64,000 nt of DNA from positions 46,252,001 to 46,316,000 of the forward strand of contig OZ024744.1 of assembly GCA_964016885.1 (NCBI GenBank), in the 5' to 3' direction. The stretch comes from Eledone cirrhosa (lineage: Eukaryota). The position numbers and the translations under genes are program-made. Positions 2,718-57,415 of the stretch are shown piece by piece (the stretch's first letter is position 1; every line of letters begins with the position of its first letter). The notes beneath the pieces were generated by a model. The model searched no databases. It was not told the origin of the DNA and was given only the letters and a program-made list of their open reading frames with translations.

Positions 2718-2820
2718 GACATATATGTTGAGATAGGATCTCTCAACCTTCACATTTTATATTCTGCCTTCCAGAGTGTGTCTGTATATTTGTGTGTTTC
2801 ATATTTCACATTGATGGGGT

Positions 2821-4560: not shown

Positions 4561-4989
4561 GCGTGACTCTATGCTGCAAAGCAAGGCATCCGACCCTCAA
4601 CTCATACTTGTAATCCACCTAATGGGAGAGGGACAGACACTATACTCCTGTCTGAGCTGTGACTCAGCCCCTCCCTATCTTCCTCTTCTCTCTATTACAG
4701 GCAGTGAAGCCTGGGTTTGTGGCCGCAGTCAACAGGTTGGAAGCAGAGATCCAACCCATGCTAAACATCCAACTAATTCTGCTACTTGTCTTTTTCAGCT
4801 GTGGAGATTAGAGACATGTGGAATGATGTGTCTTGCTTAAGGACACAATGTACCTCCCTAGCTGAGAATTGAACACATAATAGGATGTATGACTTCACTA
4901 TATATATACATATATATATACATATATGTGTGTATAGACATTTATATATATGTGAGTGCGTATGTACATATGCATATGTGCTATATATA

Positions 4990-7959: not shown

Positions 7960-8703
7960 TTTTCGTGCAATGGCCATACTCGAAAACGAGGGGGCAGCCA
8001 TCCTGTGTGTTTACACGTATGTATGGTGTGTATATGTGTACATAGGGTTTTGGTATATGTACGTTTGGTGAACATATGTGTATTTACCTGTAGGTATGTG
8101 TGAGTGTGCGTTCTATACGCATTTATGCGTGTATATTTATATATGTATATATATTATATGTATACACACAAACATATATTTATATGTGTATTTGGTGTAT
8201 ATGTCCGTATGAGTGCGGGTGTATGTGTCGCACCTTTTTACGTCCGTGTGCGCGTTTTTATGTGTACGTGCATGTACATGCATGCATGCCGCGTGCTTTC
8301 GCATATGCACGTGTATAATTGTGTGTATGTATATATTTAATTATTATTACTTTTATGATTATAATAACCTCTGTCATTTTCGTTCAACTAATTTATTTAC
8401 ATTATTCTGAACTCCGAAGCCGAGAATCATTCAGTTTCCTAAATAGTATATTAGTCTACGACTCCATTTATACCATAAACGTGGTTTTGTCTTTACGTGT
8501 AATTGTTGTCACCGCTCCACATAACAATGTATTATCTTCACTTTTTTCCGTTCATTGCCAGGGAACGTCTTCACGAACAGAAGTATCGTCTTCCTGTTTT
8601 CCTTCGGTTGCAACTTTTTTCGAAATATTTACTTCTGCGTTCTCAGATTGATTTTTTTTTAGTTTCAGAAGATCCCTTTAAGGGCGAAAGCAGCAATTCT
8701 TTG
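7960..8703 (+). mobile_element. Diverged 3'-UTR/pseudo-LTR fragment of the Penelope-like family
   Basis: 8451-8703 aligns by eye with 48021-48271 (ttagtctacgac..ataccataaacgtgg; agtttcagaagatccc..gaaagcagc). Confidence 0.75.
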
Positions 8704-25104: not shown

Positions 25105-26423
25105 GGCACTGTCATGGTATTAGCTGTCAGAAAGAAGGTGACGTCATTCGTCAACCTTCTCAATCGTTTATTTCCGTATCACCAAGCGTTTATTTACGTT
25201 TATGATTTTATTTATGGGTACCAAATAACCACGTAATTTTCGAGAGAAACGATTATATACAATCTTATTTAACATGTGCATTAAAAACTACACTAGCTGT
25301 TACAATTGTAATTAACGTGTAAGAACTTAAATGAAAATATAGGTGGCCCTTAAAAGGGCCGGTGTTGAACTTATATTTGGGCGATATCCAATTTTACCGC
25401 CCGAATTGCTGCTGATGCTGCTTACGTGCTGTAGTTGCTGCTTACTTGGTGACTTGCTGCTATTGTTGCTTAACTTGTGCTACTTACCTGCTTCACTGTA
25501 TGAGGCTATTCCAACAAATTTACATTCCCTTTTTTTTAGCCGTTAAAAGAAATATAGATTTATTTATTTGCTCGTTAAATGTTTGTACTTGATTTTTGTA
25601 AAAACTTCCCCCGCCTAATGCCCTAGTGGCAAATAAATCGCCCCCCCCCCCCCCCACAAAAAAAAAACATACAAAAACGCGGCAAATAAAGAAATCTATG
25701 CCCCAGTGGCAAATAAATCGCAAAAAAAAACAACCCAAAAAAACAAACAAACAAACAAAAACGTGGCAAATAAAGAAATCTATGCCCCAGTGGCAAATAA
25801 ATCGCAAAAAAAAACAACAAAAAACAAGAAACTAACAAAAACGTTGCAAATAAATAAATCTATATTTCTTTTAACGGCTAAAAAAAGGGAATGTAAATTT
25901 GTTGGAATAGCCTCATACAGTGAAGCAGGTAAGTAGCACAAGTTAAGCAACAATAGCAGCAAGTCAGCAGTAGCAGCAGCTAGCAACAAGCAGTAAGCCA
26001 CCAAGTAAACAGCACGTAAGCAGCACAGCAGCAAATCGGGCGGTAAAATTGGATATCGCCTAAATTTGTTTTCTAATTTGATAACTATGGCTTGTATCAA
26101 CACGGGCCCTTTTAAGGGCCACCTATATTTTCATTTAAGTTCTTACACGTTAATTACAATTGTAACAGCTAGTGTAGTTTTTAATGCACATGTTAAATAA
26201 GATTGTATATTATCGTTTCTCTCGAAAATTACGGGGTTATTTGGTACCCATATTTTTTTTTAATAAGTGTATCTCATCGTAAACGTATCTCTTAGAAAAT
26301 CATAAACATAAATAAACGGAAGAGTGATACGGATATAAACGATTGAGAAGGTTGACGAATGACGTCAGATAGACGTCACCTTCTTCTGCTTTCACTTCTG
26401 ACAGCTAATACCATGACAGTGCC
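25105..26423. mobile_element. Foldback/MITE with ~500-bp inverted arms, Merlin-like termini
   Basis: Ends GGCACTGTCATGGTATTAGCTGTCAGAA / TTCTGACAGCTAATACCATGACAGTGCC; 8-bp TSD AATAATTG (25097-25104, 26424-26431), single copy at the paralogous empty site ~39961; ~75-bp tandem units in the centre. Superfamily inferred from GG-N-R-M ends plus an 8-bp TSD. Confidence 0.85.
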
Positions 26424-41599: not shown

Positions 41600-44500
41600 C
41601 GCACCACCATTATTACGTGGGCCAATCATAAGTCAGGGGCCTATGCTATCACTTACATGGTTGCCTTTCGATATGATGGATGGACTACGGAATTCTGGAG
41701 AGTTTAAAAAGAAAAAATCTGGACACTCAGTGACAATGGCAAAGACAAAGACAAATTCACCTCATGCTGCCGGACGAGAATGCAAGGACTCCTCCTCTTT
41801 GTTTCGGCCGCGGATGGCTAACATAACCCCACCCCCACCCCCTCCCCTGCGCCCCATCGCTCCCACCCTCCTAACGCAATCCAAAACTTCAGAGTTGGTA
41901 CCATGAATATAGGCACCTTAAAGGGTCGCTCTAACGAGGTTGTAGAAATGCTTGAACGTAAGGAGGTCGATGTTTGTTGTATTCACGAGACCAGGTGGAG
42001 GGGTGGGTCTGCTAGATTCATTGTGGGTAAAGAACGATGCTATAAGCTTTTCTGGGTGGGAAATGACAATGGGCTGGGTGGGTAGGAATCATGGTAGCAG
42101 AAAAATGGGCAGATAAGATAATAGACGTAAATAGAGTGAACGACAGAATAATTAAAATAAGACTTGTCCTCAATAGAACTACTGTGCCAATACTATCTGC
42201 ATATGCACCACAATCCGGACTGCCTGGCGTTATAAAAGACAGGTTCTATGAGACGTTAATGCTAACTACCTCCCAAATAACCGACAGTGACTACATAGTT
42301 ATCGCTGGCGACCTAAATGGTCACGTTGGATAACATTGTGACGGCTATAACGGAATCCATGGAGGCTATGGGTTTGGTACTAGAAATGAGGAAGGCTCCA
42401 GAATCCTGGAATTCTGTGACGCAAATAACCTAACTATCTGTAAAACTAACTTCAAAAAACGAGACAATCACTTGATCACCTATAGATCGGGAGAACACAC
42501 AAGCCAGGTAGATTATATCCTTACCAGGAAACGTGACAGAGTATCTGTTGTAAACACTAAATCCCTTCCCATGAAGAATGCACCTCCCAACATAGACTCA
42601 TAATTAGCGACCTCATAGTCAGGACGAGACGTATTCGACAACAGAAGAGGACTATCCTCAGGAGAAAAATATGGAAGTTAAAAGACCCCACAGCCAGTAA
42701 TAAATTTAACAGGTGATTACTTGATGCTTTCGATAGTAAGGAAGAGCAATTAGAGTCGTACAATATAGAGGAACAGTGGAAATTCCTGAAAGCTAACATG
42801 CTGAAGAGGACAGATGAAACCTGTGGCTGGAGCAGACCTATAGGCAGGAGCAGAGTAACTTGCTGGTGGAACAGTAAGGTGGAGGGGTCAATCAAGGCCA
42901 AAAAGCAGGCTTGGAAAGCATGGTGGGATGGGGGAAGTAGAGAAGACTATCAAGTGGCCAGGAGGGAAGCTAGGAAACAAGTGTACTTCGCAAAAAGGGA
43001 AGCAGAGGAAAGAAAGTTCAAGCATGTTCTACAACGCGAGGACCGAGAACGTGAGGTGTTCAGGATTGCTTGTCAATGTGTCAAGGAAAACAGTGATATT
43101 GTCGGGGAGAAGTGTGTCCTTAATGATGATGGTGTACTTGCCATCACTGACGCTGATAAGAAGGTAGCTTGGGAGTTTCACTACGAAAGGCTACTAAATG
43201 AGGAGAATAATTGGGAGAAAGACAGTCTCCCCCATATCGACCCAATAGAGGGACCAGCAGTGAAAGTTGAAGGTAGTATAATAAGTAAGGCGATCAAAGA
43301 CATGAAGACGGGCAAGGCGACCGGGCCTTCGGAAATAGTTGCTGAAATGCTGAATGCATCTGGAACGGTGGGACACACTATGGTCACCCGGATAGTAAAC
43401 CAAGTCATACAGAATGGGGTCGTTCCGAAGGACTGGCGCAGCAGCATCATCATTAACTGCTACAAGGGTAAAGGTGATGCCCTAGATAGGGGAAACTCTA
43501 GAGGCATTAAATTAATTGACCAGGTCATGAAGGTCACAGAAAAAATAATAGCGTAAATAATCAGATAGCGAATTGATCTAGACGAAATGCAGTTCGGGTT
43601 TGTGTCATGTAAAAGTACAATAGACGCTGTTTTCATTGTACGACAACAGGAGAAGTACCTAGCTAAATGTAAACCCCTATACTTAGCTTTTTTTGACTTG
43701 GAGAAAGCCTTTGACAGAGTACCCCGCTCGATTATCTGGTGGGCCCTTAGAAAACTAGGTGTTGATGAATGGCTTGTGAGAGCTATACAAGCCATGTATA
43801 AAGAAACAGTCAGCAAGATTAGAATTAACAACGAATATAATGCAGAGTTTAGCGTAAAAGTTGGTGTTCATCAGGGCTCTGTCCTTAGACCCCTACTATT
43901 TATTATTGCCCTTCAGGCTATAAAAGAGGATTTCACGGCCGGCTGCCCATGGGAACTTCTATATGCAGATGATCTATCGCTCATAGCTGAATCAATGGCT
44001 GAACTAGAGAAGAAATTCCTTAAGAATCAAAAGGCCTTAAAATTAACCTCTCTAAGACTAAAGTTCTAGTTTGTAGGAAGGAAAATAGGGCACTGGTCCC
44101 ATCTGGAAAATGGCCGTGCTCAGTGTGTAGGAAAGTAGTAGGCAGAAACTCCATTTTATGTCCCAAATGCAAAGTATGGGTGCATAAAAGATGTAGTGGG
44201 ATCACAGGTAAGCTAACTAAGAATATAGATTTTATATGTGGCCGGTACTCTGGTGCAATAAGTAGCAGCAAGTGCCCACAGAATACTAGCTCATTCCATT
44301 GCACAGATGGTTCTATGGAAATAGTGACAGCTTCCGTTACCTGGGTGACTAAATCAGCAGTGGGGGAGGGTGCTCTGAAAGTACAATAGCTAGAGTCAGA
44401 ACGGGATGGAAAAAGTTCAGAGAGCTTATACCACTATAGGCCGCTAAAAGGTTCTCTCTAAAAATGAAAGGCAGGCTGTATGATGCCTGCATACGAACAG

Positions 44501-45280
44501 CAATTTTACATGGCAGTGAGACCTGGGCATTGTGTGCAGAGGATATACGCAGACTGAAGAAAAACGAAGCTTGCATGCTCCGCTGGATGTGTAATAGTAA
44601 TATACGTGAACGGCAAAGCATAAACGAACTAAGGGAGAAATTAGGAATAAGAGGGATCAGTTGTTTTTTACTCGAGAGAAGACTACGTTGGTACAGTCAC
44701 GTGATGTGCATGAAAGATGACAGCTGTATAAAAAAGTGCAGGGCGATAAAAATAGACGGTAGCCACGGAGTAGGCAGACCCAGAATAACCTGGGACGACT
44801 TGATAAATTCCGACCTTACACACTTACACCTCTCCAAGTCAATGTCATTGGACCGAGATCTTTGGCGCTACACAGTTATACAGAAGACCCGCCTTGCCTA
44901 AGTACAAAGCGAAACCTACAGTCAGTAGGCACCTCTAACAAAATACACCCCCTCCCACTACCCCCACCCCATTCACACCACCCCCTTAAATGTGAAGTTA
45001 TGTTGGTACAACAACATCCAGTCCGAAACAAATGAGGTCGTGTAGGTGTCACGACAAAAAAACACACGGTCCACGGTGTAATGTGTCCGTGTAGGTAACA
45101 CGGTAAAAACCTCCCAGTACTCACTGTAAACGTGGTTGGTGTTGGGAAGGGCATCCAGCCGTAGAAAACCCGCCAGACAGTCCTATACGAGCAGGACAAC
45201 CAATTTTGCCTCAAGTGGGAAAACTCCCGTCCAAACCCATGCAAGCGTGGGAGATGGACGTTAAACGATGGTGATGATGA
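41600..45280 (+). mobile_element. Near full-length degraded RTE-clade LINE (APE + RT with PHD-like insert)
   Basis: MNIGTLKGR, CCIHETRW, SAYAPQ and GDLNGHVG endonuclease motifs; FFDLEKAFDRVPR, GVHQGSVL, LLYADDL and RLRWYSHV RT motifs; multiple stops and frameshifts; (GAT)n tail. The 5' boundary is approximate. Confidence 0.92.
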
Positions 45281-45282
45281 TA

Positions 45283-45702
45283 TATATATATATGAATGTA
45301 TATATAGTGTATTTTGCAATACACTGTATGCTTAATTAATAACATTTCGAAGACCTTACGCTATTGTTTTAGAGTAGTGACAGGTTCACTTACTTTAAAT
45401 TTTCAGCGAACAGTGGAGATAAAGCTGACAGAGCTCTGTTTCGTACTTTTTGGTACTTATCAAAGCTAAGTACTCCACCTGTTTGCTGAAAATCATGAAT
45501 GTTTGATTCTTATAGAATTCTAGTAATAATCAGGAACTGATTATACAGAGCGGTTGCCGGTCAAGCAGTTGCCTGTTTGCAGAAAATTTAAAGTAAGTGA
45601 GACTGTCACTATTCTAAAACAATAGCGTAAGGTCTTCGAAATGCTTTTAATTAAGCATACAGTGTATTGCAAAATAGACTATATATACATTCATATATAT
45701 AT
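45283..45702. mobile_element. ~420-bp foldback/MITE with ~130-bp inverted arms in (TA)n
   Basis: tgaatgtatatatagt.tattttgcaatacactgtatgcttaatta... is the reverse complement of 45573-45702. Confidence 0.8.
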
Positions 45703-45843
45703 CGCTATTTCAGAGCACCAATTTTAATATATATATATATATAGTAATAATAATAAAATTGAAGACTAAAATCCAAAGAGGGCTCGATAAGGAAAATATA
45801 TATCAAATATATAAGAACCGTAGAGCAAATATTTATTAAAATA

Positions 45844-45919
45844 ACAGATTAAAGTTTAAGCAAAGAATCGCTGCTTTCACCCTTAACGGGATCTTCTGAA
45901 ACTAACAAAGTCAATCTGT
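45844..45919 (-). ncRNA. Hammerhead-like fold, variant core (inverted pseudo-LTR copy)
   Basis: Reverse complement of 48213-48288. Confidence 0.6.
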
Positions 45920-46476
45920 AAACGCAGAAGTGGATATTTCAAAAAAACGTTGCAACCGGAGGAAGACAGGAAGACGATACTTTGGTTCGTGGTAACGTTC
46001 GCTGGCAAAGAACGGGAAAAAACGAATAATACGTCATTAATAGGTGCGGTGAAAAACAATTACGCGCAAAGACAAAACCACGTTTATGGTATAAAAGAAG
46101 TCGTAGACTAATGTTCTCTTAGGTGGTACATAGAGACGTTCTCTGGCAATGAACGAAAAAACGAAGATAATAAGTCATATGTGGAGCGTGGAGAACAATA
46201 GCACGCAAAGACAAAAACACGTAAATGGTATAGCAGAAATCGTAGACTAAAATTCGAACTAGGAGACCAAATGAATCTCCGCTACACAGTTAAGAACAAA
46301 GTAAATAAATACAATACAGAAGTAATAGAAACAAATAAATACATACACGCAAACAGATACGTACATACACAAGCATATATTACCCGTATAGAAAGCCGAA
46401 TGATACGCTTAATTACATAAGTAAGCATTCCAACCATCCTGCCAGCATAGCCAAGAACCTGGTAAGAAACGTTTCG

Positions 46477-47301
46477 TTGAGGCTTTCCCGTCTTTCCACC
46501 AACGAGCGCATTTTCAACGACCATTCCACTTATTACAATGAAGCTCTTGCTCGAAGTGGATTTGTCGATAAGGTAGCATATACAGAGTACGAAAATAGAC
46601 CTAGAAGAAATAGATCCCGTCGCATTTGTTGGTTTAACCCACCATATAATATGGAGTTGGCCACGCCATTAGCTAAGATCTTTCTTTCCCTTATTACGAA
46701 GCATTTTCCCCCTACACATAAATATAGTAAAATTTTTAATAGAAATACTATTAAAATTTCTTACTCTACGACTCCTAACCTTGCACATAACATCACACCT
46801 TCAAATTTAGCTAAACTACCTAGCCGTAGGAACACGTGCAACCCTGTAGTTAGTACTAACTGTAATTGTAGGAATCGGGTTGATTGCCCCCTATCCGGGA
46901 AATGCCTCTCTAATAACATTGTCTACAAATGTAAGGTTGTAACACCCACGTCCCGTAGGGCCTACATAGGGTTAACCGCCAGTAGTTTCAAGCAGCGTCT
47001 TTACATGCATACCCATTCTTTTCGTTACCCTCTAAGAAGGAATATGACGTCACTTTCAGCTTATATCTGGAGTCTAAAAGACAACCACACCCAATATAAG
47101 TTACACTGGGAGATCCTAGCTAGGGCTAGATCGAATAACGGAAATAAAAGACCATGTGACTTCTGCGCCGCTGAGGCCCTGGAAATACTCTACGCTACAG
47201 ACCACATCTTAAACAAAAAATCTGAGGCAATTTCGGCTTGTAAACATAAATTGCACAAAACTTTCCTGTATTACAGCCCCACGTTATACCCTAACGGATA
47301 G
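46477..47301 (+). CDS. Penelope-like polyprotein C-terminus (thumb, CxC-x5-C linker, GIY-YIG endonuclease), 5'-truncated
   Basis: WFNPPY, CNCRNRVDCPLSGKC and NIVYKC..AYIGLT..FKQRLYMH motifs. Confidence 0.85.
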   Translation: MRLSRLSTNERIFNDHSTYYNEALARSGFVDKVAYTEYENRPRRNRSRRICWFNPPYNMELATPLAKIFLSLITKHFPPTHKYSKIFNRNTIKISYSTTPNLAHNITPSNLAKLPSRRNTCNPVVSTNCNCRNRVDCPLSGKCLSNNIVYKCKVVTPTSRRAYIGLTASSFKQRLYMHTHSFRYPLRRNMTSLSAYIWSLKDNHTQYKLHWEILARARSNNGNKRPCDFCAAEALEILYATDHILNKKSEAISACKHKLHKTFLYYSPTLYPNG

Positions 47302-48212
47302 CACGATCTATACGTGGATATTTTACGTCTTGATGTGGGAGCTAAGTATATGTTTTGTTTATTCCTTTACATATTTGCATAGGTAAGTATATATTACCCG
47401 TATGTTTTATGAATGTATGTATACCTTCTCGTACGTATATTTGACTGTTATAGCGTATAATTTTTACATATTCTGGTGTTTAGGGTTTGGCATTGTGTAT
47501 ACGGGATTTTTGCGTCCGCGTGAGTGTGCAGGTTCGTACGTATGGTGGGTGTGTGTATATGTGTACTTCTTGTTTTAGTTGACTTACGTCTCCGAACATT
47601 CGTGTATTTATATGTAGGTATGCGTGTGCGCTTGTTATATACGTATTTATTTACTTATATACGTTTATATAATTATTTATTTATTTGTACACAAGCATAC
47701 ACACACACACATATTTATATGCGCGTGGTTTTGTATACCCATGGTAAGGTTTTGCGTATGCTTGTGTATGTACGTATCTGTTTGCGTGTAGTATTTATTT
47801 GTTTCTATTACTTCTGTATTGTATTTATTTACTTTGTTCTTAACTCTGTAGCGGAGATTCATTTGGTCTCCTAGTTAGAATTTTAGTCTACGATTTCTGC
47901 TATACCATTTACGTGGTTTTGTCTTTGCGTGCTATTTTTCTCCACGCTCCACATATGACTTATTATCTTCGTTTTTTCGTTCATTGCTAGAGAACGTCTC
48001 TATGCACCACCTAAGAGAACATTAGTCTACGACCTCTTTTATACCATAAACGTGGTTCTGTCTTTGCGCGTAATTGTTTTTCACCGCACCTATTAATGAC
48101 GTATTATTCGTTTTTTCCCGTTCTTTGCCAGTGAACGTTACCACGAACCAAAGTATCGTCTTCCTGTCTTCCTCTGGTTGCAACGTTTTTTGAAATATCC
48201 AGTTCTGCGTTT

Positions 48213-48288
48213 ACAGATTGACTTTGTTAGTTTCAGAAGATCCCGTTAAGGGTGAAAGCAGCGATTCTTTGCTTAAACTTTAATCTGT
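48213..48288 (+). ncRNA. Hammerhead-like ribozyme fold with variant core in the Penelope pseudo-LTR
   Basis: Stem I ACAGATTGA/bulge/AGTTT pairs with AAACT-TTAATCTGT; core CAGAAGA; stem II CCC/GGG; GAAA; stem III GCA/TGC; AATAAA follows. Confidence 0.6.
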
Positions 48289-48295
48289 TATTTTA

Positions 48296-48355
<60 letters not shown>

Positions 48356-49609: not shown

Positions 49610-52600
49610 TAGTAATAATAATAAATTTGAAGACTAAAATCCAAAGAGGGCTCGATACGGATAAATATATATCAAATATATAAGAACCGTTGAGCAAATA
49701 TTTATTAAAATAACAGATTAAAGTTTAGGCAAAGAATCGCTGCTTTCACCCTTAACGGGATCTTCTGAAACTAACAAAGTCAATCTGTAAACGCAGAAGT
49801 GGATATTTCAAAAAACGTTGCAACCGGAGGAAGACAGGAAGACGATACTTTGGTTCGTGGAAACGTTCGCTGGCTAAGAACGGGAAAAAACGAATATAAT
49901 ACGTCATTAATAGGAGCGGTGAAAAACAATTACGCGCATAGACAGAACCACGTTTATGGGATAAAAGAGGTCATAGACTAATGTTCTCTTAGGTGGTGCA
50001 TAGAGACGTTCTCTGGCAATGAACGAAAAAAACGAAGATAATACGTCATATGTGGAGCGTGGAGAACAATAGCACGCAAAGACAAAACCACGTAAATGGT
50101 ATAGCAAAAGTTGTAGACTAAATTCTAACTAGGAGACCGAATGAATCTCCGCTACAGAGTTAAGAACAAAGTAAATAAATACAATACAGAAGTAATAGAA
50201 ATAAATAAATACATACACGCAAACAAATACGTACATACACAAGCATACGCAAAAACTTACCATAGATAAACAAAACCACGCACATATAAATATGTGTGTG
50301 TGTGTAAGCGTGTATATAAATAAATAAATAATTATATAAACGTATATAAATAAATAAATACGTACATAACAAGCGCACACACATACCTACATGTAAATAC
50401 ACGAATGTTCGGAGACGTAAGTCAAACAAAACATGAAGTACACATATACACACGCCCTACATACGTACGAACCTGCATACTCACACAGACGGAAAACTCC
50501 CGTATACACATAGCCGAACCATATGTACCAGAATATATAAAAAAATTATACGCCATAACAATCAAATATACGTACGATAAGGTATACGTACCTTCACAAA
50601 ACATACGGATAATATATATACACATATGCAAATAAGTAAAGGTATAAACAAAACATATACTTAGCTCCCACATCGAGACGTAAAATGTCCACGTATAGAT
50701 CGTACTATCCGTTAGGGTATAACGTGGGGCTGTAATACAGGAAAGTTTTGTGCAATTTATGTTTACAAGCCGAAATTGCCTCAGATTTTTTGTTTAAGAT
50801 GTGGTCTGTAGCGTAGAGTATTTCCAGGGCCTCAGCGGCGCAGAGGTCACATGGTCTTTTATTTCCGTTATACGATCTAGCCCTAGCTAGGATCTCCCAG
50901 TGTAACTTATATTGGGTGTGGTTGTCTTTTAGACTCCAGATATAAGCTGAAAGTGACGTCATATTCCTTCTTAGAGGGTAACGAAAAGAATGGGTATGCA
51001 TGTAAAGACGCTGCTTGAATCTATTGGCAGTTAACCCTATGTAGGCCCTACGGGACGTGGGTGTTACAACCTTACATTTGTAGACAATGTTACTAGAGAG
51101 GCATTTCCCGGATAGGGGGCAATCAACCCGATTCCTACAATTACAGTTAGTACTAACTACAGGGTTGAACGTGTACCTACGGCTAGGTAGTTTTGCTAAA
51201 TCTGAAGCTGTGATGTTATGTGCAAAGTTAGGAGTCGTAGAGTAAGAAATTTTAATAGTATTTCTATTAAAAATTTTACTATATTTATGTGTAGGGGGAA
51301 AATGCTTCGTAATAAGGGAAAGAAAGATCTTAGCTAATGGTGTGGCCACCTCCATATTATATGGTGGGTTATACCAACAAATGCGACGGGATCTATTTAT
51401 TCTAGGTCTATTTTCGTACTCTGTATATGCTACCTTATCGATAAATCCACTTCGAGCAAGAGCTTCATTGTAATATGTGGAATGGTCGTTGAAAGTACGC
51501 TCGTTGGTGGAAAGACGGGAAAGCCGCAACGAAACGTTTCTTGCCAGGTTCTTGGTTATGCTGGCAGGATGGTTGGAATGCTTACTTATGTAATTAAGCG
51601 TATCATTCGGCTTTCTATACGGGTAATACAACCCATTCGATAAGTTGAGGATAACGTCGAGGTAATTAACGACCGAGAGATTGGCCTCAACCTGTATAGA
51701 GAGGTTGAAGCCTTTAAAGAAGGCTGTGAGTTCTTTTCTGAACCTGTCGCAAGCACGAGGTCCGCACTTAGTCATGGTCACAAGACCATCGTCACGGTAC
51801 AAACCACCGCCCGCGTTGGGGAATTCGTCCTTGATAGAGAAAAGAAGGAAAAGGCCGATAAGCTCAGTAACCTCCGCTCAGTAACCTCCGCAGAATCACT
51901 GGCGCCCATACTCACGTCGAATGGGGTACGATTGGATTTTTTAATCCAAATAGAGTCGTCGAAATTAATCACCGACTTTCGGGAATTGAGGATGACATGA
52001 ACTTCGAAATCCTTAACCACTCTGAGTGTTTTAGCGAAATTGATAGCTCTAAGGAGAAGTGGTAAAGTGATGGAGGAGTAGTAATTGTTGATGTCGAATT
52101 GGATAAAACGGCAATGTTCCTTGTTACATATGCCGTTGAACCAATCAATCACCGCGATGGAATTGTTCCACAGTGCAAGAGGGGCCAAACTTCTAATTTC
52201 AGGAATAATTCTATCAAGAATCGTCTTACTAAGTCTACCTAAATCGGACTTCGCAGGGTTAATAAGCCGAATAGAGAGGTTGTTCGGAAAATTGGATTTG
52301 TGATCCTTCAGGGTAAAGTGGGGAGAAATAGGATCCAGAGGTTCGGTCCGGTCCAGGATGTTGAGATCAGATGTGATTTTAAACCCAGCATCGTTGATTT
52401 CATTGATGACGCACCGATTAGTTTTACGGTAATCCTTAGTTACAGCATTATGTAGTAGTTGATGGTAAGTACTGTGCTCTACTTGATATAGGTTGCCAGT
52501 TTTTTCGGAATGGACGTGCACGGCATTAGAATCCTTAATAGAACGAATTCTATTCTTCAGGTCTTGCTGGAAGGAATTGCTCCTATTCCGAAATTTGATA

Positions 52601-52892
52601 CTCGAAGGGTAGCAATGCAGGGTTACACGGGGGGTTATTATAGGTTTTAAATCCAAATTTATCCTGTTTGTTGTCTGCTTTTCGCGGATTATCGAAGTAA
52701 AAGGCCCGCCAACGCAACCTTTTAATGAACGCGTCTGTTTTCTGTATGAGGAGTTTTAGGTATGTTTTCCTGCTTGGTACGGGTATGTTCTTTGTAGAAA
52801 TATTCAGATGTTGTTTCTGCATGATGAATATAAGTCAGTAGAGTGCTCAACCGAGGGAGCCAAATAGTAATAATAATAAATTTGAAGACTAA
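49610..52892 (-). mobile_element. Near full-length Penelope-like retroelement (RT + C-terminal GIY-YIG) with two frameshifts
   Basis: ORFs 52583..52822, 51778..52656 and 50705..51802 with FIQFDINNYYSSI, MGASDSAEV, YRDDG, NYLDV and GIY-YIG motifs; 28-bp direct terminal repeat (49610-49637, 52865-52892); (TA)n on both sides. Confidence 0.93.
49713..49788 (-). ncRNA. Hammerhead-like fold, variant core (long element copy)
   Basis: Same 76-nt fold with one change next to the predicted cleavage site (GCCT vs GCTT). Confidence 0.55.
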
Positions 52893-55474: not shown

Positions 55475-55746
55475 CAAATAACGAAACGAAATTAAATTTC
55501 GTCTCGCTTCTAACTCACTTTTGTATGACTGACGCTTAAACAATTAAGTTAAAGTGTACATCTACATATGTATACGGAAGTACTAGTATGCATATAAATA
55601 CACACATGTATACATATGTACATGTACTGAGTTTTTCACTAGACACTTTACAGTGAGTGTCCAGCTAGTCTGTATGTAACCACTCCGGAGTAGTGTAAAA
55701 TAAAGTTAAATAAAAGTCAAATGATTAAAATTTAGCTTCGTTTATT

Positions 55747-55801
55747 ACTGCTATATATATTTCAGTGACAGCCATCTTTGGCTGTGACCTCTTCAGGCAG
55801 T
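55747..55801 (-). ncRNA. Minimal type I hammerhead ribozyme
   Basis: rc: ACTGC-CTGAAGA-GGTCACAGCCA(AAGA)TGGCTGTCACT-GAAA-TATATA-TA-GCAGT; canonical CUGANGA/GAAA/UH core with stems I and II and a palindromic short stem III. Confidence 0.8.
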
Positions 55802-56039
55802 TTGAATTAGTATGGTATAGACAAGTACATATGTTGTTGAGGTGTATAATATTGTCAATACTCTGATATGCCCAGTTCCTTGTTGGGTTGTTATTTCACT
55901 CAGGAACTGGAATCATGATATGATATGATTCCAGTTCCTGAGTGAAATAACAACCCAACAAGGAACTGGGCATATCAGAGTATTGACAATATTATACACC
56001 TCAACAACATATGTACTTGTCTATACCATACTAATTCAA

Positions 56040-56094
56040 ACTGCCTGAAGAGGTCACAGCCAAAGATGGCTGTCACTGAAATATATATAGCAAT
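56040..56094 (+). ncRNA. Minimal type I hammerhead ribozyme (second palindrome arm)
   Basis: Same motif; stem I 3' strand is GCAAT (one mismatch); followed by AATAAA. Confidence 0.75.
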
Positions 56095-56136
56095 AATAAA
56101 CGAAGCTAAATTTTAATCATTTGACTTTTATTTAAC

Positions 56137-56270
<134 letters not shown>

Positions 56271-57280: not shown

Positions 57281-57415
57281 TAAGCGAAGAATCGATGCTT
57301 TCACCCTTAACGGGATCTTCTGCAACTCATTATTTTAATAAATAGATGCTCTACGGCTTATATATACATATACATATGTTATCCTTATCGAGCCCCCTCC
57401 CGATTTTAGACTTCA
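57281..57415. mobile_element. Tiny rearranged Penelope pseudo-LTR fragment
   Basis: 57281-57327 is the hammerhead-like segment on the minus strand, joined to the downstream tail (ttattttaataaat..ccttatcgagccc..ttttagacttca) on the plus strand. Confidence 0.7.

Follow-up and report, generated by a model that had tools for sequence, protein, structure and literature searches.

A family of Penelope-like element (PLE) retrotransposons carries in its terminal repeats (pLTRs) a hammerhead fold with adenine in place of uridine at core position 4 (A4), and CAGA is the state of the family. The motif is probably, though far from certainly, an attenuated and possibly protein-assisted self-cleaving ribozyme, slow but still working, as judged from its pattern of conservation.

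Anatomy and copies of the motif

The window analyzed here is the whole 64-kb stretch of DNA, and its features are listed in Table 1. The sequence at 48213-48288(+) can be read as the three-way junction that the initial annotation had described. Fold parsing and the covariance model placed three helices around the core with stem I (14 bp in total) open, which is the type I topology, and the type I features C3, G5, A6, G8, A9, G12, A13, A14, A15.1-U16.1 and H17 are present in all three subfamilies of the element. The U4 of the uridine turn is replaced by A, and a U-U mismatch occupies the place of the Watson-Crick pair 10.1-11.1. In anatomy and descent the motif belongs with the type I hammerheads, but it lacks U4 and is therefore classed as a variant, not as a canonical member. 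The stem I bulge is a candidate partner of loop II; the distance between them fits a tertiary contact, and both vary among the subfamilies with no clear covariation.

The core pattern matched five times in the window, at the positions given in the initial annotation, and not once in 100 shuffles. These had been presented as five conserved copies; all five do carry the core pattern, but only two (48213+ and 45844-45919-) are complete and unmutated, and these are both ends of one insertion (inverted repeats I2/I21). Because the five are copies of one repeat and not independent, the state of the family was settled by genome-wide counts. The expectation that standard motif searches would miss such cores was borne out, as an Rfam search of the window reported none of the five copies even at E<=5.

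Table 1. Features of the A4 motif, its copies and its carrier element in the window
Feature	Position	Strand	Remarks
Complete type I hammerhead-like fold with A4 core	48213-48288	+	Insertion is inverted and truncated; fold in its 3' terminal repeat
Distal stem I	48213-48221/48280-48288	+	
Stem I bulge, 7 nt	48222-48228	+	5' side, 5 bp from core; sequence differs among subfamilies
Proximal stem I	48229-48233/48275-48279	+	
Core CAGAAGA (C3 A4 G5 A6 A7 G8 A9)	48234-48240	+	A4 at 48235
Core position N7	48238	+	A/U between subfamilies
U-U mismatch closing stem II	48241, 48253	+	U10.1 at 48241, U11.1 at 48253
Stem II CCC/GGG, 3 bp, 5-nt loop II	inside 48241-48257	+	
GAAA (G12 A13 A14 A15.1)	48254-48257	+	
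Stem III GCA/TGC, 9-nt non-palindromic loop III	48258-48275	+	Region with U16.1 and U17
U16.1, U17	48273, 48274	+	
Predicted cut after CUU	between 48274 and 48275	+	Inferred from hammerhead numbering
AATAAA	48295-48300	+	Runs into (TA)n to 48303; insertions of the family prefer this end and one other
Terminal repeat (pLTR) with hammerhead	47791-48303	+	Inverted-repeat analysis, genome matches
3' part of element ORF	46339-47301	+	Late RT, linker CxCx5C, GIY-YIG-type endonuclease
Second complete copy	45844-45919	-	In inverted pLTR (~45740-46342), 5' end of same insertion as 48213+
Third copy	49713-49788	-	U16.1C, breaks A15.1-U16.1 pair
Broken near full-length element	~49610-52892		49713- copy at its 3' end; ORF pieces 50705-51877 and 51778-52834
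Middle-subfamily copy	8643-8703	+	U-C closing; stops after stem III, lacks stem I 3' strand
Short remnant, core to stem III only	57281-57327	-	No distal stem I; stem III mismatch

The carrier element

The carrier is a protein-coding retrotransposon of a 3.0-Gb animal genome. Intact copies exist. In one, a 709-aa ORF has an A4 fold on either side, at a spacing of 3,243 nt; the fold lies 199 nt before the ORF and the predicted cut 158 nt upstream of its ATG. We looked for the features given for the Hydra clade of PLEs (Craig et al. 2021, 10.1101/2021.04.23.441226): 1) a single ORF with reverse transcriptase (RT) followed by a C-terminal GIY-YIG-type endonuclease, 2) the change of DKG to DKT, 3) a CxCx5C linker and 4) insertion at (TA)n targets with tandem or inverted pLTRs that bear a tail and a hammerhead. 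The ORF is single and shows, by eye, FDI and YRDD motifs of RT and a C-terminal YIG motif. DKT was found in 24 of the 28 genomic copies examined and in 109 of the 120 listed homologs. The linker starts at residue 564 of the L066 ORF, and C.C.{5,6}C occurs in 112 of the same 120 homologs, one of which is annotated with PF01541; a Pfam search with the four ORF pieces of the window returned nothing relevant. Of 90 young copies, 70 have their end in (TA)n, 38 at the AATAAA and 32 at a tail ~90 nt further, and 12 continue into the next ORF. Tandem and inverted pLTRs with a tail were also seen. By these features the element appears to be Hydra-clade-like, although its unit of ~3.24 kb exceeds the size of generally <3 kb given in that description of the clade. 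The motif had been assigned to Penelope terminal repeats, and both this identity and the model built from relatives (see below) agree with that assignment.

A non-LTR retrozyme, made of short non-coding tandem units, was considered and rejected, the fold being located in the pLTRs of a 3.24-kb coding element. Neither the element protein nor the motif was found in viral contigs. When the nearest outside protein (P0001, 57%) was used as a query, all matches in the genome belonged to the motif-bearing family. The same sequence as in the element appears at low depth in one contig each from organisms B and C, which we did not count as evidence across species.

Position 4 across the genome

Exact genome-wide matches to a 26-nt pattern running from the core to GAAAGC numbered 23,807 with A4 and 770 with U4. 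With a native stem I as a further requirement, 195 matches had U, G or C at position 4, which is the level of random mutation; the pattern used for this count has five more fixed bases than the one behind the 23,807. By eye, the first 100 non-A copies listed comprised 35 U, 39 G and 26 C. The contrast between 23,807 A4 and 195 non-A matches, together with the presence of A4 in three subfamilies, upholds the view that the changed core is a family trait and not copy decay. A canonical consensus would have spoken against this view, and the family consensus has A4, not CUGA.

The 770 CUGA matches were considered as a canonical subfamily, which was rejected because they are mostly fold-back junctions: among the first 30 of these loci, 26 were fold-back junctions by threshold and two more by eye, leaving two in native context. 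The cDNA can fold back on itself at a short palindrome around A4; CTGA is then written on one strand and false canonical cores arise. This palindrome (equivalent to 48232-48238; loci L031-L060) is the exact turning point of hundreds of head-to-head fold-back insertions.

Canonical relatives

An alignment of the element ORF with 47 of the 120 listed homologs was used to retrieve 77 metagenome loci of 35-43% protein identity. With position 4 left free, a hammerhead descriptor gave 61 sense matches starting with CU and none starting with CA in these loci, and 14 matches of any kind in five shuffles. The relatives carry their CUGANGA hammerheads in the same place, ~180-220 nt before the ORF, and a related family in the genome of the element (L215) has a canonical CUGAUGA core. 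Two of the metagenome loci (L104 and L116) hold second hammerheads on the opposite strand, one of them with a G3-C8 swapped core, GUGAUCA.

For covariation we used 22 relatives of equal stem III length, taken from 32 listed, of which 29 were first aligned. Two-sided changes were observed at 10 of 11 pairs, a strong covariation that is partly circular because the set was picked by a pairing descriptor. A covariance model built from these 22 relatives only found 48227-48283 and 45849-45905 (20.3 bits, E 0.002) and 49718-49774 (E 0.04); it gave five matches with E<0.05 in the window, the three A4 copies and two canonical hammerheads of another repeat. By eye, the relatives have U-U at 10.1-11.1 in 15 of 22 cases and U17 in 6 of 22, and the pair C15.2-G16.2, swapped to G-C in the A4 family, is present in 21 of 22. 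From these states in the relatives, U-U is a trait of the clade, and A4, G15.2-C16.2 and the long stems are derived. The mismatch closing stem II, pointed out in the initial annotation, is therefore present but not special to the family.

Conservation among subfamilies

Between the middle subfamily (30 copies) and the young one, about 29 of the 207 positions in 48020-48226 differ, against 0 of the 72 in 48227-48298. The oldest subfamily (30 copies) is 80-84% alike to the query copy, and its ORF pieces are ~54-84% identical to the young ones. A4 is found in 30/30 of its copies and N7 is U in 17, A in 12 and G in one; loop II, loop III and the bulge are altered. Comparing majority bases of the young and oldest subfamilies, none of the 54 core and paired positions had changed, against 9 of the 22 free ones, N7 included; outside the fold, changes were seen at 19 of 63 positions upstream and at 4 of 11 downstream. 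Fisher tests on these counts gave p values of 3.5e-6 and 3.6e-6, figures behind which there are few independent lineages because the subfamilies are few and related. The A4 family retains the catalytic residues G8 and G12, as well as the C3-G8 pair. As core and paired positions stayed unchanged while free ones changed, the comparison indicates that selection acts on the fold in its A4 form and that copy decay has not shaped it. A protein-binding or folding role could be an alternative cause of this invariance.

No two-sided compensatory change was detected among the three subfamilies, where the only stem change was G-U to A-U at 48220, in 8 of the 30 oldest copies. The initial annotation had proposed compensatory changes as a test, and within the family none were found; support for the stems comes instead from their invariance and from the two-sided swaps relative to the relatives.

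Folding energy and insertion junctions

The minimum-energy structure given by RNAfold is a different one, 2.8 kcal/mol below the hammerhead (z -0.87), and pair probabilities in the proximal stem I are 0.05-0.08. The thermodynamic case is thus weak by itself, and the identity of the motif as a hammerhead derives from homology.

As a proxy for cleavage we examined the 5' junctions of copies truncated in 48259-48281 (3,827 in number). Of the first 100, 96 were parsed and 89 kept after removal of seven internal deletions. Among these 89 no clear junction peak was seen at the predicted cut, with four junctions at 48275. Positions 48273-75 received 16 of 71 junctions against 10.7 expected (p 0.06), a comparison confounded by T/A microhomology to (TA)n. 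This analysis replaced an uncontrolled count of 302 genome matches starting at 48273-75. Most insertions were copied through an intact predicted cut site. This read-through does not separate the readings of the motif discussed below, because an Anolis element also inserts from uncut RNA. A tandem array of ~150-nt units, six of which were listed, was noticed at C2:61196700-61197524; each unit starts on or beside the predicted cut and extends into the 5' UTR.

Possible activity of the A4 core

A was fixed at position 4 of this lineage long ago, and all core and paired positions were held from then on. We propose that a transcript through tandem copies would fold the hammerhead junction, probably aided by the 14-bp stem I, by contact between the bulge and loop II or by the element's own protein, and would be cut after CUU, slowly or late, into unit-length RNA of ~3.24 kb. 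Most insertions would come from uncut RNA copied by internal priming downstream of the fold, and a slow core would be tolerated because reverse transcription primes internally on such RNA. In the literature, a viroid variant with U4C is described as slow in vitro and sufficient in vivo, and U-U as the best-tolerated mismatch at 10.1-11.1 (PMC3088659). In another hammerhead that was scanned by pairwise mutation, every single change in the CUGA turn is reported to have left low activity, and among double mutants only the C3-G8 swap was rescued (PMC9901934). One PLE hammerhead is reported to need its protein to cleave and to be dispensable for insertion in vitro (PMC11167929).

It is also possible, although we consider it rather unlikely, that the ribozyme is catalytically dead and the fold is kept for a structural role, as a protein-binding site or to place the internal start of reverse transcription just downstream. 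U4 in 61/61 canonical sense matches of the relatives and the slowness of CUGA mutants (PMC9901934) would agree with a dead core, as would insertions that read through the uncut site and junctions with no clear peak there. PLEs are moreover described that spread with no hammerhead at all (Naiad elements, 10.1101/2021.04.23.441226), and hammerhead mutants reportedly did not impair insertion in vitro (PMC11167929). However, all 14 core positions are held (G12, G8, U16.1 and a non-G at 17 among them) while N7 and the loops turn over, which is a catalysis-like pattern, and a mere scaffold would likely drift at some core bases over ~30% flank divergence.

At the other extreme the A4 core could be fully active, its loss of U4 compensated by G15.2-C16.2, the longer stems I and III and the bulge-loop contact. 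A4 is indeed accompanied by a stable, monomer-type stem III and by the 14-bp stem I, the swapped 15.2-16.2 pair is absent from the 22 relatives, and U4 back-mutants have never spread, their 35 among the first 100 non-A copies listed being not above G or C. Full compensation is nevertheless improbable, for no CUGA double mutant other than the C3-G8 swap was rescued in the published scan (PMC9901934), and fast cutting would part the priming site from its template, yet most copies read through. Neutral decay in one recently amplified master copy with an unselected fold is hardly credible and largely refuted: a single-master burst would give thousands of identical copies whatever the core, but A4 occurs in three subfamilies whose oldest members are as divergent in repeat and ORF as described above, with constrained positions unchanged and free ones changed.

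The attenuated ribozyme that we favor should be distinguished from a bolder claim, which we regard as doubtful, that a hammerhead cleaves at a physiologically useful rate in the absence of U4, its turn rebuilt by the periphery or the element's protein, that the lineage relied on this activity and that CUGA-based searches missed such cores. Were this true, cores might have been missed in PLE families reported as hammerhead-free.

Comparison with known hammerheads

Hammerhead descriptors take U4 to be invariant. An A4 lineage that kept the rest of the core and pairs would either widen the natural catalytic core or indicate a PLE fold with a non-cutting role, and either outcome bears on the question of PLE hammerhead function. 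The motif is directly testable as a 76-nt RNA with built-in controls, namely three natural subfamily forms and canonical relatives in the same genome.

The description of the Hydra clade (10.1101/2021.04.23.441226) mentions, in the parts that concern the hammerhead, no core variant, whereas A4, G15.2-C16.2 and a 9-nt non-palindromic loop III are found here. Cervera and De la Pena (2014, PMC4209133) described minimal type I hammerheads in metazoan PLEs, which share with our motif the type I topology, the location in pLTRs, a dispersal as thousands of truncated copies, pairs on opposite strands and a low expected activity. Our motif differs in its real, monomer-type stem III and in its long stem I with a bulge, and it lacks G10.1-C11.1. 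The core covariant U3-A8 is known in those metazoan elements, which are not known to include a change of U4. Natural core variants (Perreault et al. 2011, PMC3088659; Naghdi et al. 2020, PMC7151607) likewise have one invariant base changed and the rest kept, and share the U10.1-U11.1 closing; the U4C viroid variant is among them, and an A6C variant prefers Mn2+. These are rare single cases, U4A going unnamed in the text of those sources, whereas here the change is fixed in >20,000 copies and across three subfamilies. The Poseidon PLE of Anolis (Frangieh et al. 2024, PMC11167929) resembles our element in two internal priming sites that give the tail and in insertion from uncut RNA. According to the same report it differs in its canonical core, its clade, the overlap of the hammerhead with the ORF start and a cleavage shown with protein. 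We found no report of a natural U4A hammerhead in the text of the papers searched, which does not establish absence from print.

Other repeats and hammerheads

The window also holds, at 55743-55803(-) and 56038-56098(+), two type I hammerheads whose core is the canonical CUGAAGA and whose loop III is short and palindromic; AATAAA and (TA)n come after them. Both hammerheads sit in a perfect fold-back with arms 55698-55916/55925-56143; Rfam was silent on them, and the region gave the top match of the clade model. This fold-back (55698-56143) is likely a remnant of another PLE family. A weak Rfam match to HH9 (27.6 bits, E 0.01) with a mutated core, at 45405-45480(-) between the inverted-repeat arms 45284-45413/45573-45702, belongs to a different repeat.

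Other families of the same genome have canonical hammerheads as well, at L215:1874-1928(+) and at L213:4293-4339(-) and 4705-4751(+). Three canonical hammerheads ~500 nt apart, a retrozyme-like spacing, occur at L217:1766-1812, 2289-2335 and 2762-2808(+).

In run X6, shares of A>G/T>C within 48190-48303 of the window reached 1.1% at 48235, 3.5% at 48257 and 1.2% at 48264, against <0.15% in X1 and X2. These figures, which are contig depths, are only a hint and would fit A-to-I editing if X6 is RNA.

Rfam returned two matches to the histone 3' stem-loop that exceed the gathering score, at 25321-25365(-) and 26100-26144(+), in the arms of an inverted repeat (25213-25368/26097-26252). Just upstream of the insertion, at 42717-44901(+), are broken LINE reverse transcriptase ORFs, which we take to be RTE-like.
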